Shown in pieces: positions 3,186 through 24,850 of a stretch of DNA of 64,000 nt. How positions within the stretch are numbered: the stretch's first letter is position 1; every line of letters begins with the position of its first letter. The position numbers were made by a program, and so were the translations under genes. Location: the sequence record PV295200.1; one strand, given 5' to 3'. The notes beneath the pieces were generated by a model. The model worked only from the letters and a program-made list of their open reading frames with translations. It searched no databases and had not been told where the DNA came from. This stretch comes from Escherichia phage vB_Eco_BCPEco_001.

Positions 3186-5164
3186 TGTGATATAGGCTCC
3201 AAATCGATAGTTAAGTATTGCGGACGTAAATCATTTTCAAATACAATCAGTGAACCATCACGGGTAAAGATAACATCATCGGTTGGGTCAGAATATAATT
3301 CAATAGTCTGAACCTCAAATTTTTCAGATGTTAAATTAATTTTAGCGATATTCCAATAAATCATGTCAGTCGGATAATTTATTTCACCGATAACATAGTA
3401 TTTGTCGCGTCCATCAGAATTTGCTAATTTATTAAAATCATTGCCTGTATATGGCTGAATGTTTTCATTTTCTGTAACATCGCCAGAAGCAAATGGACCA
3501 ATAATAACTTTACCAATTCCTTTAGAATCTCGGTCTGTTGATACTATACGAACATCATATAATACATCTTCTTCTAAACCAGTATCAGGATTTACAACCT
3601 TTCGTCCAGAATTAAATGAAAACGTATTAGATTCCATAGAACGATCTTTTATTTGATTATTATATTTAATACCCGCTTCAGGCGTTTTATAGAAGTTTTG
3701 TACTTCACGAACCATTTGAATAGTCGCTGATGAACCAATGACAGAATGATCTGCATCATCTACATATGTCAACATCTTAGATTTAGCGAAAGACGAGTTA
3801 AAAATTTCTACATCTTCGGTATAATAGCGATCAATTTTATCAATTATTTGACCTTCAAGCCACTGTTCGGATTCTTGCAGCTTATTTAAAGCATATGTGA
3901 CTTTTAAATTAGTCTTAATAAAAAGGTAATTAGGAGAAATAATTGATGGTGTAATAGGAGCTAAATTATAGTCTTTGAGATAATTTTTAATATCTTCACG
4001 CTGTACGGTAGTTAAATACAGACCTGATTTAGGTTTAGCAGCAATAAATGCATACCCAGGTTTAGTAGAATCAGTGAAAGTTTGAACAGCTTGAATAATA
4101 GAACCAAATCTCTCTGAAACGAATGTATCATAGTCAGTCGCAGTTACGCATCGTTGCTGGGTTTCGCGTTTAATAGTACCCAATTCGCGAATACGCTCAA
4201 TATCTTCTGGATCACCGCCTCCATCTGCCCCAACAAAATCTGGGTCACCGTTTGGATTTTCATTAATATTGATGACAGTTATATTTGTTAATGTGTCTGC
4301 GTATGAAAATCCGACTGCTCCGTTCGCGTCAGCACCATTAGTACTAATGTACTCAATAACAATCGTAGAGTTCTGAGTAGGTTTAAGACCTCCAATATAA
4401 TTAGCAGTCAAAGCTCCTTCAGAAGCATTAACAGAAATTTCACCTTCACCAAAATAGAATTCAGTGTTTCCATCAATAGTTTCACGCATATAGTAAATCG
4501 TTGATGTTGAACCAGCATGAACCATTGACTTTCTCGTCCAGTTAATCCATTCCGCTCCATCAACATATAATTTAACCTGGTTTCTATCAATATTTTTATC
4601 ATAAATGATAATAGGTGTTAATTTATCATAAATGATTTCAGTTCTTACTATACGTCCCTGGGCCAATTTTAAACGTGGAAAATATTGGTTATTTTTATCA
4701 CGAATAGCAATAACGTCTTCGGTAGAAACGAAGTTATATGGATTAACAGAAGTATCTTTTGCATATGCTAAAAAGCGAGTTCCGCGAGGAATTGTAATGT
4801 AATTCCTATTCAATGCGTCGGTGCATGTTAACATAATTTCGGTTTGCGCAGCGGATTTTGAAGTAGGTAAATATCCGTTATCTTGTGCAGCTTGAACAAC
4901 TGAGCTTCGTAAGTTAGCAGTACGCATAAAGCTTTCATATACAGCAGCATTACCAAACTGCTGAATGTACAGCGTATTATAAGCCAAAAGGTCACACAGA
5001 ACGTTTAATCTTGAGCCTTCAAAATCATAATCCAAAAATTCATTTTGGCCATTAAGCCATTCAATGAGGTTTTGTTTTATTTCAGCAAACGTACCCCCGA
5101 CGAATATCTCGGGAATAGCATTTGCTGTTCTTGTTAATTGATAATTTACAGGGGTATTTGCCAT
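3182..5164 (-). CDS. 6: baseplate wedge protein gp6
   Basis: 660 aa ORF, same length as T4 gp6; ATGA overlap with gene 7. Confidence 0.85.
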   Translation of the reverse strand: MANTPVNYQLTRTANAIPEIFVGGTFAEIKQNLIEWLNGQNEFLDYDFEGSRLNVLCDLLAYNTLYIQQFGNAAVYESFMRTANLRSSVVQAAQDNGYLPTSKSAAQTEIMLTCTDALNRNYITIPRGTRFLAYAKDTSVNPYNFVSTEDVIAIRDKNNQYFPRLKLAQGRIVRTEIIYDKLTPIIIYDKNIDRNQVKLYVDGAEWINWTRKSMVHAGSTSTIYYMRETIDGNTEFYFGEGEISVNASEGALTANYIGGLKPTQNSTIVIEYISTNGADANGAVGFSYADTLTNITVININENPNGDPDFVGADGGGDPEDIERIRELGTIKRETQQRCVTATDYDTFVSERFGSIIQAVQTFTDSTKPGYAFIAAKPKSGLYLTTVQREDIKNYLKDYNLAPITPSIISPNYLFIKTNLKVTYALNKLQESEQWLEGQIIDKIDRYYTEDVEIFNSSFAKSKMLTYVDDADHSVIGSSATIQMVREVQNFYKTPEAGIKYNNQIKDRSMESNTFSFNSGRKVVNPDTGLEEDVLYDVRIVSTDRDSKGIGKVIIGPFASGDVTENENIQPYTGNDFNKLANSDGRDKYYVIGEINYPTDMIYWNIAKINLTSEKFEVQTIELYSDPTDDVIFTRDGSLIVFENDLRPQYLTIDLEPISQ

Positions 5165-16180: not shown

Positions 16181-16516
16181 ATGAAACGTAACTTTAGTAA
16201 AGCTTTTTGTAATCGAAATTATTATCCTGAAGAGCTTTTTGAATCTAAGGAATTTAAAGAGTTTAACGAACGTTCTCAAAACATGCCTGTACAATGGGTA
16301 TTGGATTATGCTAACCGTATCTTTGAAGGCGTGCGGGATATTTGTCCTGATGATGAAGCTCCTTATTTTAAAAAGGCTTGGGAACTTGCTAACCAAGCAT
16401 ATATCAATGCTTTAGAATCTTCTAAAGGCACTGACGATGATTTTACTTTATTGGCTATCAATGATGCCGTTATCGAGGCCATCGACGTCTTTATCGATGA
16501 GCTAGATGAAGAATAA
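16181..16516 (+). CDS. hypothetical acidic protein
   Basis: 111 aa; SD GAGGAG; upstream promoter with -10 inside the inverted repeat ggctcat...atgagcc. Confidence 0.5.
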   Translation: MKRNFSKAFCNRNYYPEELFESKEFKEFNERSQNMPVQWVLDYANRIFEGVRDICPDDEAPYFKKAWELANQAYINALESSKGTDDDFTLLAINDAVIEAIDVFIDELDEE

Positions 16517-16562
16517 GTTTACAATCTATTAAAATCTAATTGTATCAACCTAAGGAAATACT

Positions 16563-17156
16563 ATGAACACACTGAAGAAAATTGTTGAGTTTATTCGCAC
16601 TAAACTTGGTTCTGCAATGGCTAAAAATCTATCTGTTGAAGAACAGTATACTGCTGCAGCAGCAAAACTGCTTGATAAAATTAAAGACCTAAAAACTGCT
16701 TCTGTTAAATCTATTAATGAAGAAAAACGTATTCGTGAACTTATTGTTGAAAAGAATAAGCAGGCCGAATCAAAAGAGCGTGAAATTCGCAAGCTTCTTT
16801 CTGAAGGTCAAGATGTAACAATGCATGCTAAACTCGGTTTACTATATCGTCGAACAGCTGAGCAGTTGACTACTAAAGCTGATGGTTATGCTGAAATGCG
16901 AATTGAAATCGCCAAGAAAGTAGTTGAGTTAGATGATGCTCGCCAAGAACTTGCAGTTAAATTGGAATATATCCGTGAAACTCGTGCTGCGAATGCCCTT
17001 GGAATTAGTACTGCTGATGATGTAGTTGAAATTGCAGCACTGACTAAAGTTGATATTGAAGATACTCTCGCCCGAGTTGAAACCTTTAATGGCAATATTT
17101 CTGGGGTTGAAACTACCTCTGCCGATGTTCAGGAATATATTAATTCTCTGAAATAA
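16563..17156 (+). CDS. hypothetical alpha-helical coiled-coil protein
   Basis: 197 aa, Ala/Glu/Lys-rich with heptad periodicity; followed by the hairpin aggggcttcggcccct. Confidence 0.5.
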
Positions 17157-17197
17157 TGATAAGGGGCTTCGGCCCCTATTACTTGGAGTAAGTAGGA

Positions 17198-17806
17198 ATG
17201 AAAATGCAAAGTGATTTCAATTCAATGTTTGAAGAGTTCCAAAGGCAGGTTGATGTTCCAGACCAATTGCTAAATGCTCTTAAACGTATGGCAGAAGGAC
17301 GTAATTATTATTGGGGTTCTTCATATGAAACTGATGAAAGTCTTTCTGGAAGATTTTCCAGAGGTAAAAAGTCTTTAATACGTCCTGGAATACTTATTAA
17401 CAGTATTGAATCAATTTATTCATTGACATGCGATTTTGATGTTGAATTTACTGATTTCATTTCTCCTGAATGGACAGTTTGTTATTTAAACGACGATTTT
17501 GATTATCTCGGTGTTTATAGTTTAAGTGACGCATGGTTTAAACGTAACTTACAAAAGTCAAATTTATTCTATATTGATACTACAGTAAAATTTCAGGGAA
17601 AGAAATATTTCTTTACTCTTATAGTTGATTCTGAAACGAAGCATGAAAATAAACGTATTCTTAGTAAAAAGAATATCTTAACTATTGTTGATGATCTTTT
17701 TGATAAATTCGTGGAAAATCCCAGTTTTGAAAGCGATTTATTACTAGAAAAATTTGTGAAGGAATGCAGAGAATATGTCAAAGCCATCAATGTATCTTCC
17801 AAGTAA
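17198..17806 (+). CDS. hypothetical protein, first member of a C-terminal FVKECR-motif family
   Basis: 202 aa; C-terminus KFVKECREYV shared with the next three genes. Confidence 0.5.
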   Translation: MKMQSDFNSMFEEFQRQVDVPDQLLNALKRMAEGRNYYWGSSYETDESLSGRFSRGKKSLIRPGILINSIESIYSLTCDFDVEFTDFISPEWTVCYLNDDFDYLGVYSLSDAWFKRNLQKSNLFYIDTTVKFQGKKYFFTLIVDSETKHENKRILSKKNILTIVDDLFDKFVENPSFESDLLLEKFVKECREYVKAINVSSK

Positions 17807-18167
17807 ACCGTTGAAGTATGAATTAAAGCGCCAGCTAATTTCTACTGATGTATTAATAGGTCCTGTGGTAGCTGTATCATTTGTAATTCTACTGGGGGTT
17901 GGAATAATTATAGATGTTATGACTAATATTGAATCTAATGTAATATTTGCGTCAACACTAATTCTTCCAATGATAGTTCCATTTTTATTAGTACCTGTAA
18001 ATTGGATAGGATACTGGTATCAAGGAAGGCATTATCGTAAACGCGTACGTGATTGGAAAGCACAGTGTAAAAAGATTAAAAAGGAACATCAGCTTAAACT
18101 TGCTGCGTATGAATTTGATGAAATTATGAAATTTGTTAAGGAATCACGATGCAAAAGCCAAAACTAA
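17775..18167 (+). CDS. small membrane protein (2 predicted TM helices), FVxExRCK family
   Basis: 130 aa; two hydrophobic helices then a basic tail ending KFVKESRCKSQN; start lies inside the upstream gene. Confidence 0.5.
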   Translation: MSKPSMYLPSKPLKYELKRQLISTDVLIGPVVAVSFVILLGVGIIIDVMTNIESNVIFASTLILPMIVPFLLVPVNWIGYWYQGRHYRKRVRDWKAQCKKIKKEHQLKLAAYEFDEIMKFVKESRCKSQN

Positions 18168-18511
18168 ATAAAGTCAAATATTCGCTTCCTGAGTCATTTT
18201 TAATTTTTGCTGTGGCGTTGGCTGCAGCTCTTGCGGGTAGTCTTTTTGGATTGTTAATTGACTGTCTTATTTTAAACATTGACGGCACAGTAAATATAAT
18301 AGAAGTTTGGAGTGAACTTTGTTATACTAAAATTATTTCATTATTTTCATTCTTTGGTACCATGTTATATTTTCATTATGATAATTTTAAAATAAATTGG
18401 CAAAGAAAAAAAGATTACAAAATACAATTAAAAGAATATAATAGCTACATGTCTTATATTGAAAATGAGTCAATGAAAGAGTTTGTGAGTGATTGTAGGA
18501 AAATTAAATGA
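18149..18511 (+). CDS. small membrane protein (2 predicted TM helices), same family
   Basis: 120 aa; ends EFVSDCRKIK; start overlaps the upstream gene. Confidence 0.5.
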   Translation: MQKPKLNKVKYSLPESFLIFAVALAAALAGSLFGLLIDCLILNIDGTVNIIEVWSELCYTKIISLFSFFGTMLYFHYDNFKINWQRKKDYKIQLKEYNSYMSYIENESMKEFVSDCRKIK

Positions 18512-18996
18512 TTTTAAAAACTCGCTGGTATGATTTAGATGATGGGGATGATGGCATTTCAGTTGATAGAGTTGACTGGAATGGTTGTTCCGAAGATATG
18601 AAAAATTTGTTGATTAGGGAGTTTAGAATGGGATATCAAGCAGCTAAGCCATTTACTGTAACAGATGATAAGTTCGTATGTATTCAAAACGGTCGCGCTA
18701 AGTTAACGAACGCTGATTGGTTCACAGATAAAATTATGATTCTGTGGTATATTATTAGTCTTCCTGTGACATCATTCGTATTTTACTTTTTTATAAAAAA
18801 TCCAATGGACAGAATAGGAGATTGGATTCTTTTAACCATACTTGTTAATATTTTTACAGCAGCAATATTATCTGGGATATGGTACACGTTCATTGAAATG
18901 CCATGGCGGCTACGCAGACAACAAAAGATTTTTGATGAAAAGAAATACGTTCAAAATTTAAATAACTTTATCACTGAATGCAGGAAATTAAAATGA
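18508..18996 (+). CDS. small membrane protein (2 predicted TM helices), same family
   Basis: 162 aa; ends NFITECRKLK; ATGA overlap upstream; its last codons contain the nudE ribosome-binding site. Confidence 0.5.
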   Translation: MILKTRWYDLDDGDDGISVDRVDWNGCSEDMKNLLIREFRMGYQAAKPFTVTDDKFVCIQNGRAKLTNADWFTDKIMILWYIISLPVTSFVFYFFIKNPMDRIGDWILLTILVNIFTAAILSGIWYTFIEMPWRLRRQQKIFDEKKYVQNLNNFITECRKLK

Positions 18997-19433
18997 AAAC
19001 ACTATCAGCTGGTATTATCTTTATGACAGAAGATAGAGATTTATTTATGGGTCGGGTTACTGGTTCTCGTAAGCCTGGAATGATGGCACATCGCTGGGAT
19101 ATTCCAAAGGGCCGCGTAGAAAATTCTGATTTGAATGCACTGGAAGCTGCAAAAAGAGAATGCTTAGAAGAGACTGGCTTTAGCAATTATAATCCAGACC
19201 TTCTAGAAGACCTAGGTGTATTTAAATATTCTAGTAATAAAGACTTACAGTTATTTTATTATACGATTCCAGTAGAGCATGAGATGTTTAGAAATTGTCG
19301 TTGCGAGTCTTATTTTGAAAATAAAGATGGTGTTATGATTCCAGAGATGGATGCTTTTGCTCTTATTCCTCGTATTCAGTGGCAATATGTGATGGGTCCT
19401 TCACTTTACCGAATAATGAACAACCTCTTTTAA
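18978..19433 (+). CDS. nudE: Nudix hydrolase NudE (e.1)
   Basis: 151 aa; Nudix box GRVENSDLNALEAAKRECLEETGF; directly upstream of e as in T4; alternative start at 18993 (MKTLSAG). Confidence 0.8.
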   Translation: MQEIKMKTLSAGIIFMTEDRDLFMGRVTGSRKPGMMAHRWDIPKGRVENSDLNALEAAKRECLEETGFSNYNPDLLEDLGVFKYSSNKDLQLFYYTIPVEHEMFRNCRCESYFENKDGVMIPEMDAFALIPRIQWQYVMGPSLYRIMNNLF

Positions 19434-19964
<531 letters not shown>

Positions 19965-24463: not shown

Positions 24464-24647
24464 TCCTAAAAACAAAGTGGAAATTATTCGTCAATGGGAA
24501 CGCATTTGCCGTACTAAATGCCCAATTAATAGTCCACATGATGTAGATAAAGACTATATTGGAACATTCGTTGAATATACCTTTATTGATAGGAAAGGTC
24601 GTAAACAACATGTAGAAGAATATTGTTTAAAGGTTACATGGTTATGA
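24435..24647 (+). CDS. hypothetical protein
   Basis: 70 aa ORF overlapping the upstream gene end. Confidence 0.4.
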   Translation: MKVHYPHPFDPKNKVEIIRQWERICRTKCPINSPHDVDKDYIGTFVEYTFIDRKGRKQHVEEYCLKVTWL

Positions 24648-24850
24648 GCCAAACTAGTATTCTTAAAAATGCCCACTGCGAAAAGTGTGAATGGCCAGTT
24701 GTTTTTGCTTTATGTAATGATGAAATGGCTTGTGATTTCGATTATTGGTGCTATTGTTCTAATAAAGGATGCATCAATCATAAAGGTGAAGGATTTTATT
24801 CAGGATTTTATCCTTATCCTGATTTCGTTAAAGAAGGTAAACCGAAATGA
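24644..24850 (+). CDS. small Cys-rich protein (putative zinc-binding)
   Basis: 68 aa from MSQTSILK; 8 Cys incl. CEKCEW and CYCSNKGC; ATGA-coupled. Confidence 0.4.
   Translation: MSQTSILKNAHCEKCEWPVVFALCNDEMACDFDYWCYCSNKGCINHKGEGFYSGFYPYPDFVKEGKPK

Follow-up and report, generated by a model that had tools for sequence, protein, structure and literature searches.

The window analysed in this study is a stretch of 64,000 nucleotides from Escherichia phage vB_Eco_BCPEco_001 (sequence record PV295200.1), and the analysis concerns four consecutive small genes on its + strand, between positions 17198 and 18996, whose products share a peptide tail that overlaps the start of the next gene. The window is of Tequatrovirus type; across bases 16500–19500 it shares 99.9% identity with Shigella phage SHFML-11, and this segment has matches in 645 phage records. 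Curated records (RB3 and T4) name the four open reading frames (ORFs) e.5, e.4, e.3 and e.2 at the same positions, with nudE (e.1), the lysozyme gene e and denV next, and with e.6, e.7, e.8 and the tRNA/rnaC/rnaD cluster upstream. The gene order tRNAs-e.8...e.2-nudE-e is kept, and orthology of e.5–e.2 to the T4 genes was confirmed by full-length matches, with 78–94% protein identity and with order, sizes and overlaps alike. The four proteins match PHROGs 2607, 2604, 2330 and 2203 (e.5, e.4, e.3 and e.2, respectively) end to end, with E values from 1e-60 to 1e-108. In an older T4 record (GenBank L13089) the genes are named msp4–msp7, and every product is annotated as 'hypothetical protein'.

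The e.5 homologue (17198..17806, PHROG 2607), named e.5 in RB3 and T4, encodes a soluble protein of 202 aa with zero hydrophobic or membrane segments. The e.4 homologue (17775..18167) encodes 130 aa and carries the precomputed Pfam assignment PF26873; the e.3 homologue (18149..18511, PHROG 2330) encodes 120 aa; and the e.2 homologue (18508..18996, precomputed Pfam PF26896) encodes 162 aa, with an N-terminal cytoplasmic domain of ~75 aa ahead of two transmembrane (TM) helices. Each of these last three proteins has two hydrophobic helices, a short loop poor in Lys and Arg and a strongly basic C-terminal segment; the N-termini of e.4 and e.3 are also basic, and positive-inside counts place the N-termini and the tails in the cytoplasm. 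An earlier reading made from the sequence alone (hereafter the sequence-only reading) had described three of the four products as two-helix membrane proteins with a basic tail, and topology prediction agrees: e.4, e.3 and e.2 are predicted N-in/C-in two-helix inner-membrane proteins, and e.5 is predicted to be soluble. All four genes and nudE (18993..19433), which encodes a Nudix hydrolase, starts inside the e.2 tail and is the last gene of the coupled block, lie on the + strand.

The tails read ...EKFVKECREYVKAINVSSK-stop in e.5, ...MKFVKESRCKSQN-stop in e.4, ...KEFVSDCRKIK-stop in e.3 and ...NNFITECRKLK-stop in e.2, and their common consensus is hydrophobic-x-x-F-(V/I)-x-(E/D)-(C)-(R/K). The sequence-only reading that four consecutive genes end in a common motif was confirmed, with two caveats. 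First, the motif does not stand at the very end of e.5 and e.4, where 12 and 5 residues, respectively, follow its Arg, because the stops of these genes sit 32 and 19 nt past the next start; the 11 residues after the e.5 motif F-V-K-E-C-R-E are encoded by the sequence of the e.4 N-terminus read out of frame. Second, the e.4 tail (F-V-K-E-S-R-C-K-S-Q-N) has Ser in place of Cys, with a Cys two residues on, and this Cys-less variant was found in all genera compared. The strict pattern F[VIL]x[ED]C[RK][KRE] had 3 matches in the six frames of the 64-kb window, all in array tails; the loose pattern F[VI]x[ED]x[RK] occurred in the last 20 residues of 5 of the 142 ORFs of at least 60 aa, 4 of which were the array genes, against an expectation of 0.0017 per ORF. 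By these counts a chance origin was rejected, and chance is excluded as the source of the sharing among the four genes. DNA repeats in the array were restricted to the tails (none in the bodies), the e.4 tail holding a 16-nt repeat 94% identical to the e.5 tail. The fifth loose match is a Cys-rich soluble ORF of 75 aa outside the array (24623–24850), which ends in ...DFVKEGKPK and is probably a chance occurrence.

The tail codons also hold the translation signals of the following gene. The overlaps e.5/e.4, e.4/e.3, e.3/e.2 and e.2/nudE measure 32, 19, 4 and 4 nt, the last two being ATGA, and the Shine-Dalgarno (SD) sequence of each downstream gene, as read from the sequence, lies inside the upstream coding sequence, 5–11 nt before the ATG. 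The e.5 motif codons TTT GTG AAG GAA TGC AGA GAA (17753..17773) contain the SD AAGGA (17759–17763) for e.4 (ATG 17775), and the e.4 motif codons TTT GTT AAG GAA TCA CGA TGC (18132..18152) contain both the SD AAGGA (18138–18142) and the e.3 ATG (18149). The e.3 segment 18482..18511 comprises the motif, the SD AGGAAA (18497–18502) and the ATGA overlap with e.2 (ATG 18508), and the e.2 segment 18967..18996 comprises the motif, the SD AGGAAA (18982–18987) and the ATGA overlap with nudE (ATG 18993); all four segments lie on the + strand. The sequence-only reading had placed the SD and overlapping start of the next gene in the tail DNA, and this held at all four junctions. With SD and start inside or abutting the upstream gene, the block has the layout of translationally coupled overlapping genes, and coupling along it is predicted. 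Ordinary coupling in phages likewise uses ATGA or longer overlaps with the SD in the upstream gene, but it places no demand for a common peptide on the genes that precede each start; in this array the peptide persists where the SD has shifted.

Wherever the motif has the E-C codon pair, an out-of-frame ATG results, and the T4 RefSeq start of nudE is such an upstream ATG (window 18978), located in the E-C codons of the e.2 tail (GAATGC) without an SD. The ATG at 18993, with AGGAAA 5 nt upstream, is the nudE start in RB3 and L13089.

The tail DNA has further served as a breakpoint for the removal or addition of a whole gene. In phage ZJUN4 e.2 is absent, and the junction ...GAGTTTGTGATTGATTG|CAGGAAATTAAAATGAAAACA is of e.3 type on the left and of e.2 type on the right, leading directly into nudE; the e.3 protein accordingly ends in the hybrid ...EFVIDCRKLK, and RB32 has the same arrangement on another e.3 allele. 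This e.2-less junction was present in 137 records, including PST, PP01, RB32 and RB33 (86-nt probe across the e.3/nudE junction, matched over at least 80% of its length), beside ~350 e.2-positive genomes, and hybrid ...DCRKLK tails occurred on four e.3 backgrounds, counted as protein clusters. When an e.2-less genome was aligned with e.2-positive genomes, the BLAST alignments overlapped by 22 nt, which is the shared tail; the repeat is imperfect over ~22 nt and perfect over 6–9 nt (TGY AGG AAA), the e.3 and e.2 segments given above being its left and right partners in the e.2-deleting recombination. Deletion is the more parsimonious direction, since e.2 is present in other genera; judging from the junction sequences, the breakpoints are in the repeat whichever the direction (loss or gain of e.2). 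Excision of e.2 damages neither the C-terminus of e.3 nor the start of nudE.

Other changes in the array took different routes. In the UFV phages (5 contigs) an in-frame hybrid e.4(1–31)::e.2(88–162) is joined inside TM1 (GPV / LPV-T-SFV) with e.3 deleted, as in phage vB_EcoM-UFV10 (locus L010, 3001–3321; protein P0098). The e.3 of Mosigvirus moha (locus L007, 3393–3492) is an internal-deletion pseudogene that retains the first ~6 and last ~28 codons, the tail and the downstream SD and start, and a second instance of such a deletion was found in IMG/VR; since the deletion is internal and the tail is retained, tail-to-tail deletion was rejected for the moha e.3 loss. The T4 e.2 (locus L011, 2927–3420) is a pseudogene: an A-run has lost one nt by slippage (A6 to A5 in TTTATAAAAAATCC), which cuts the product to 102 aa, and the remainder with its NFITECRKLK-stop survives in another frame; the window copy is undamaged at 162 aa. 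The e.3 gene is repeatedly frameshifted at the A-run of AAAGAAAAAAAGATT (window 18400–18416), which has 11 A's in RB32 (locus L015, 2040–2100), and several e.3 protein clusters end in ...QRKKGLQNTIKRI at 97 aa. The e.3 frameshifts look like contingency-type inactivation of a dispensable gene.

One explanation of the shared tail is tandem duplication of whole genes: e.4, e.3 and the C-terminal half of e.2 would be copies with diverged bodies, the e.5 tail would stem from a phase-shifted duplication, and the tail would simply be the best-kept relic. The architecture speaks for such an origin, because three adjacent genes share one topology: two TM helices joined by a short loop, with a basic segment on the N-side and, on the C-side, a basic helix that ends in the motif. 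The viable in-frame e.4::e.2 hybrid, joined at equivalent points of TM1, points the same way. BLASTP among the four proteins gave weak matches only, and e.3 aligned with the e.4 PHROG over almost the full length at E=0.024. In hhalign comparisons of four-genus family alignments, similarity was limited to the C-terminal 16–42 columns (e.4–e.3, 42 columns, P=5e-6; e.3–e.2, 19 columns, P=6e-6; e.5–e.3 and e.5–e.2, P about 5e-4), and after removal of the tails only the e.4/e.3 N-termini M-x-K-P-x-L were left (P=0.005). The motif-less scores were compared with a null in which columns were shuffled within each topological segment, thereby preserving the architecture, and no pair stood convincingly above it: z was at most 1.3, except for the e.4–e.2 TM region, which reached z=2.1 (1 of 32 shuffles).

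The bodies are also without DNA repeats, e.5 is soluble and of another size, and selection would be needed to keep a mere relic unchanged from genus to genus, so that a function at the protein level would still be called for. Whole-gene paralogy was therefore not demonstrable by BLASTP, PHROG cross-matches, hhalign with and without tails or the segment-shuffled null, and we consider whole-gene duplication with a relic tail somewhat unlikely as the explanation. The sequence-only proposal was a tandem duplication of a unit of tail, ribosome-binding site (RBS) and start; it stands in so far as the unit behaves as a repeat, e.2 having been excised between two tails, but duplication of the genes is unproven. 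That reading had named a lack of significant similarity beyond the tail as the result that would count against it, and hhalign, the segment-shuffled null and the DNA repeats came close to that result. Ancient whole-gene duplication with diverged bodies is possible; unrelated genes may also have acquired the tail module through recombination, and the soluble e.5 fits the latter. A collinear likeness of 19 nt between the 5′ ends of e.2 and nudE was judged coincidental, since both N-termini are ancestral in other genera.

The block was compared in Mosigvirus (moha, mobillu), Gaprivervirus (RZ) and Dhakavirus (VR5, dhaeg) beside the Tequatrovirus window. Across these genera the protein bodies are 19–49% identical to those of the window, and the motif is present in all four families of the four genera; all of the 18 tails have F, V/I, E/D and R/K, and 13 of 18 have Cys, which is never present in e.4. 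Over ~170 homologue clusters the tails are almost unchanging, and the genes downstream of e.3 and e.2 vary between genera while the tails are retained. Such constancy might be required of the nucleotides alone: each tail would resemble the others because it carries an SD, an A/U-rich spacer and an overlapping start, and the peptide would be a passenger. In the window each tail indeed provides the following gene with its SD and start, in most tails the SD is nothing other than the x-E codons (AAG GAA or GAG GAA), and T4 codon bias makes identical peptides similar as DNA. However, an SD needs 4–6 nt, and the conserved F, V/I, C and R lie outside it.

The codons argue further against a passenger peptide. 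The Arg codon is AGG/AGA in Tequatrovirus and Mosigvirus and CGT in Gaprivervirus and Dhakavirus, a change that makes or destroys AGGA, yet the residue remains Arg; Cys TGT/TGC and Phe TTT/TTC alternate as well. The position of the SD within the motif varies by genus: the e.2 tail of the window has AGGAAA in the R-K codons, and those of RZ, VR5 and dhaeg have GAGGA in the x-E codons. The e.5 motif of RZ and dhaeg (TTT ATT GCT GAA TGT CGT) lacks an SD and still reads FIAECREY, the e.4 start lying 12 nt farther downstream behind AAAGGGG. Because the amino acids are kept while the codons change and the SD shifts or leaves, selection acts on the peptide as such, the SD merely sharing its codons. 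On this codon evidence the explanation by translation signals alone is largely refuted, and we regard it as very unlikely; the sequence-only reading that conservation exceeds the needs of an RBS was thereby upheld. The tail is shown to be under purifying selection of its own, as protein.

The tail-bearing families are confined to enterobacterial T-even genera. A tblastn search with the divergent RZ e.3 stayed in four such genera, an exhaustive phmmer search of 1.84e9 proteins with e.5 returned 6 representatives, none informative, and a protein-seeded locus search of IMG/VR gave 4 loci. A degenerate-codon scan of IMG/VR for F-I-x-E-C-R/S-K-stop gave 25 matches, namely 12 T-even e.2/e.3 genes and 13 non-genic sites. 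A wider family with this tail was rejected, these searches having found only known T-even genes and chance matches.

T4 RegA acts on A/U-rich initiation regions of early genes. A junction that serves as a site for a phage RNA regulator (a RegA-type repressor or RegB-type nuclease) or as a structured RNA gating the coupling is highly improbable: the junctions do belong to the RegA target class of A/U-rich early-gene initiation regions and GGAG occurs in the RZ e.4 tail, but the window SDs are AAGGA or AGGAAA rather than GGAG, synonymous sites vary while amino acids are retained, and RNA structure or a known RNA family at the junctions was rejected, the four junction RNAs folding no better than shuffles (z = +1.41, 0.00, −0.68 and +0.58) and Rfam giving no match within 17198–18996.

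In the reading that we favour, and consider probable, the early accessory genes e.5, e.4, e.3, e.2 and nudE form a block linked by translation, and the tail serves as its dual-coded junction module. As protein, the tail would make up the final turns of a helix at the C-terminus, in which F, V/I, E/D and R/K do not vary, Cys is usual and a hydrophobic residue stands three positions before F. As RNA, the same ~25 nt supply the SD and overlapping start, the end of each gene priming translation of the next. As DNA, the ~22-nt repeat is a crossover site through which whole cassettes are added or removed with the upstream C-terminus and the downstream start unharmed. The tails of the three membrane hairpins would lie in the cytoplasm, as would the soluble e.5. 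From co-translation, this shared location and protein-level conservation we take the tail, by inference, to be a docking helix common to all four proteins, by which the variable membrane 'heads' and e.5 would bind one shared partner or each other. The array would have grown by unequal recombination at the junctions, either through whole-gene duplication followed by divergence or through capture of the tail by unrelated genes.

AF2 (AlphaFold2) models of e.5 and e.2 place the motif, at low confidence, inside a C-terminal helix, which in e.2 is continuous with TM2, and hydrophobic moments exceeded the shuffle mean in all 10 tails examined.

Several points weigh against the dual-coded junction. 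The AF2 models of e.5 and e.2 are poor (predicted local distance difference test, pLDDT, 41 and 51), and amphipathicity is weakly supported for individual tails, with P<0.05 in 4 of 10. The x-E codons (AAG/GAG GAA) are what an SD would require anyway, and part of the conservation is thus expected. The figure of 137 counts e.2-less records rather than independent deletions of e.2, and 'T4_ev240', taken as a laboratory-evolved deletion, was rejected as such: it is only 96% identical to T4 here and is a recombinant. Tails of the same genome resemble each other hardly more than orthologous tails do (13.0 versus 12.4 of 18 nt), a difference too small to support concerted evolution or ongoing homogenisation of tails within genomes. 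The e.4 tail is Cys-less in every genus, and e.2 and e.3 have each been lost without the others; an obligatory four-part complex is therefore unlikely.

A bolder form of the dual-coded junction treats the tail as a portable plug combining docking helix, next RBS and crossover site, on which T-even phages swap, add or drop the heads e.4, e.3 and e.2 around a single partner in the cytoplasm (e.5 or a protein of the host). We regard this form as unlikely; if true, the array would work as a set of modules for sensing or exclusion, matched to the host or competitor. No large lytic phage has been studied better than T4. Even there no function is on record for e.2–e.8, and a motif common to four adjacent ORFans and kept across genera offers an experimental handle, through tail-peptide pull-downs and through recoded tails that split the peptide from the RBS function. 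The precise tail-to-tail excision of e.2 indicates that coding sequence can serve as a shuffling junction in the hyperplastic region of T-even phages, and it explains how overlapping coupled genes are lost without breaking the translation of their neighbours. The practical impact would be modest unless the partner of the tail is a defence, exclusion or membrane-stress factor.

The closest known mechanism, by analogy, is modular shuffling mediated by promoter early stem-loop (PeSL) cassettes of T4-type phages, which are non-coding and consist of a sigma-70-type promoter and a terminator hairpin (2010, PMC2839356). In both systems short gene-boundary repeats lie in a hyperplastic non-essential region, and recombination inserts, deletes or replaces genes with their expression signals kept (PMC2839356). 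Recombination between repeats that leads to presence or absence of a gene among close relatives was likewise found here, as the loss of e.2 with a hybrid tail. In contrast to the PeSL cassettes, the e.5–e.2 repeat is coding sequence with SD and start, and the combination of promoter and terminator stem-loop was not found at its junctions; what it preserves is translation, not transcription, and it sets the peptide with which the upstream protein ends. The e.5–e.2 array may thus be described as a coding-sequence variant of PeSL-type shuffling. The genes themselves are already known but uncharacterised.

A second tail-sharing arrangement, absent from the window, was observed in Mosigviruses, Gapriverviruses and Dhakaviruses, where 3–5 tandem small soluble genes between e.3 and e.2 end in W-V-S-S-S-x-x-C-stop, the stop TAA being fused to the next SD (TGY TAA GGAA ... 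ATG). Such arrays lie at 3492–4286 of L007 (moha), 5691–6712 of L008 and 30–1286 of L009. They resemble the e.5–e.2 array in being adjacent small genes of the same region with a shared C-terminal motif joined to the next SD, and differ in the motif, the soluble products and the non-overlapping genes.

With regard to function, no significant function-bearing match for the array proteins was obtained in Pfam, PHROGs, NCBIfam or PDB sequences. The sequence-only reading had likened the membrane proteins to superinfection-exclusion, holin/antiholin or anti-defence factors; these families, including Imm (searched to E values up to 1), gave no match in Pfam, PHROGs or NCBIfam. T4 Imm, the superinfection immunity protein, is a small two-helix inner-membrane T-even accessory protein of the early region and is dispensable in the laboratory. 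It resembles e.4, e.3 and e.2 in size, early region, two TM helices and dispensability, but has no sequence match to them, and Imm is not known to bear this tail or to lie in a tail-sharing array. The name 'sulfurtransferase', given by NCBI to several e.4/e.3 homologues, and one 'DNA primase' were unsupported by Pfam and NCBIfam and look like propagated misannotations. In the CRISPRi-ART screen (PMC11879866, supplement) T4 e.2–e.8 are listed as 'Unknown' and their knockdowns as 'Not Fit', that is, with no fitness defect; literature searches found no published function of e.5–e.2 and no description of the shared tail, this supplement alone mentioning the genes. Dispensability of e.5–e.2 in the laboratory, together with frequent loss or frameshift in nature, fits a host- or competitor-specific accessory function.

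At the upstream edge of the coupled block, between e.6 and e.5, lies the hairpin GGGGCTTCGGCCCC with a UUCG loop (17163..17176, + strand), annotated as a putative stem-loop in the T4 record L13089. It has no U-run, and an RNA-stability or processing element is therefore more likely than a terminator. From this hairpin to nudE, promoter-like sites did not exceed background (23 against a shuffle expectation of 18.8 ± 4.2) and none lay at the junctions; no terminator signal within the block rose above background, and neither promoter nor terminator is annotated inside the block in T4. In the T4 record, early-type −35/−10 promoters before msp1–msp3 are the only ones preceding the block. The neighbouring e.6 (window 16563–17156, 197 aa) gave no significant match in family searches. 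It is 88% and 75% identical to its Mosigvirus and Gaprivervirus orthologues, respectively, with zero indels, whereas the adjoining e.5 is only 44% and 20% identical to its own, and e.6 is thus far more constrained than the tail-sharing genes.

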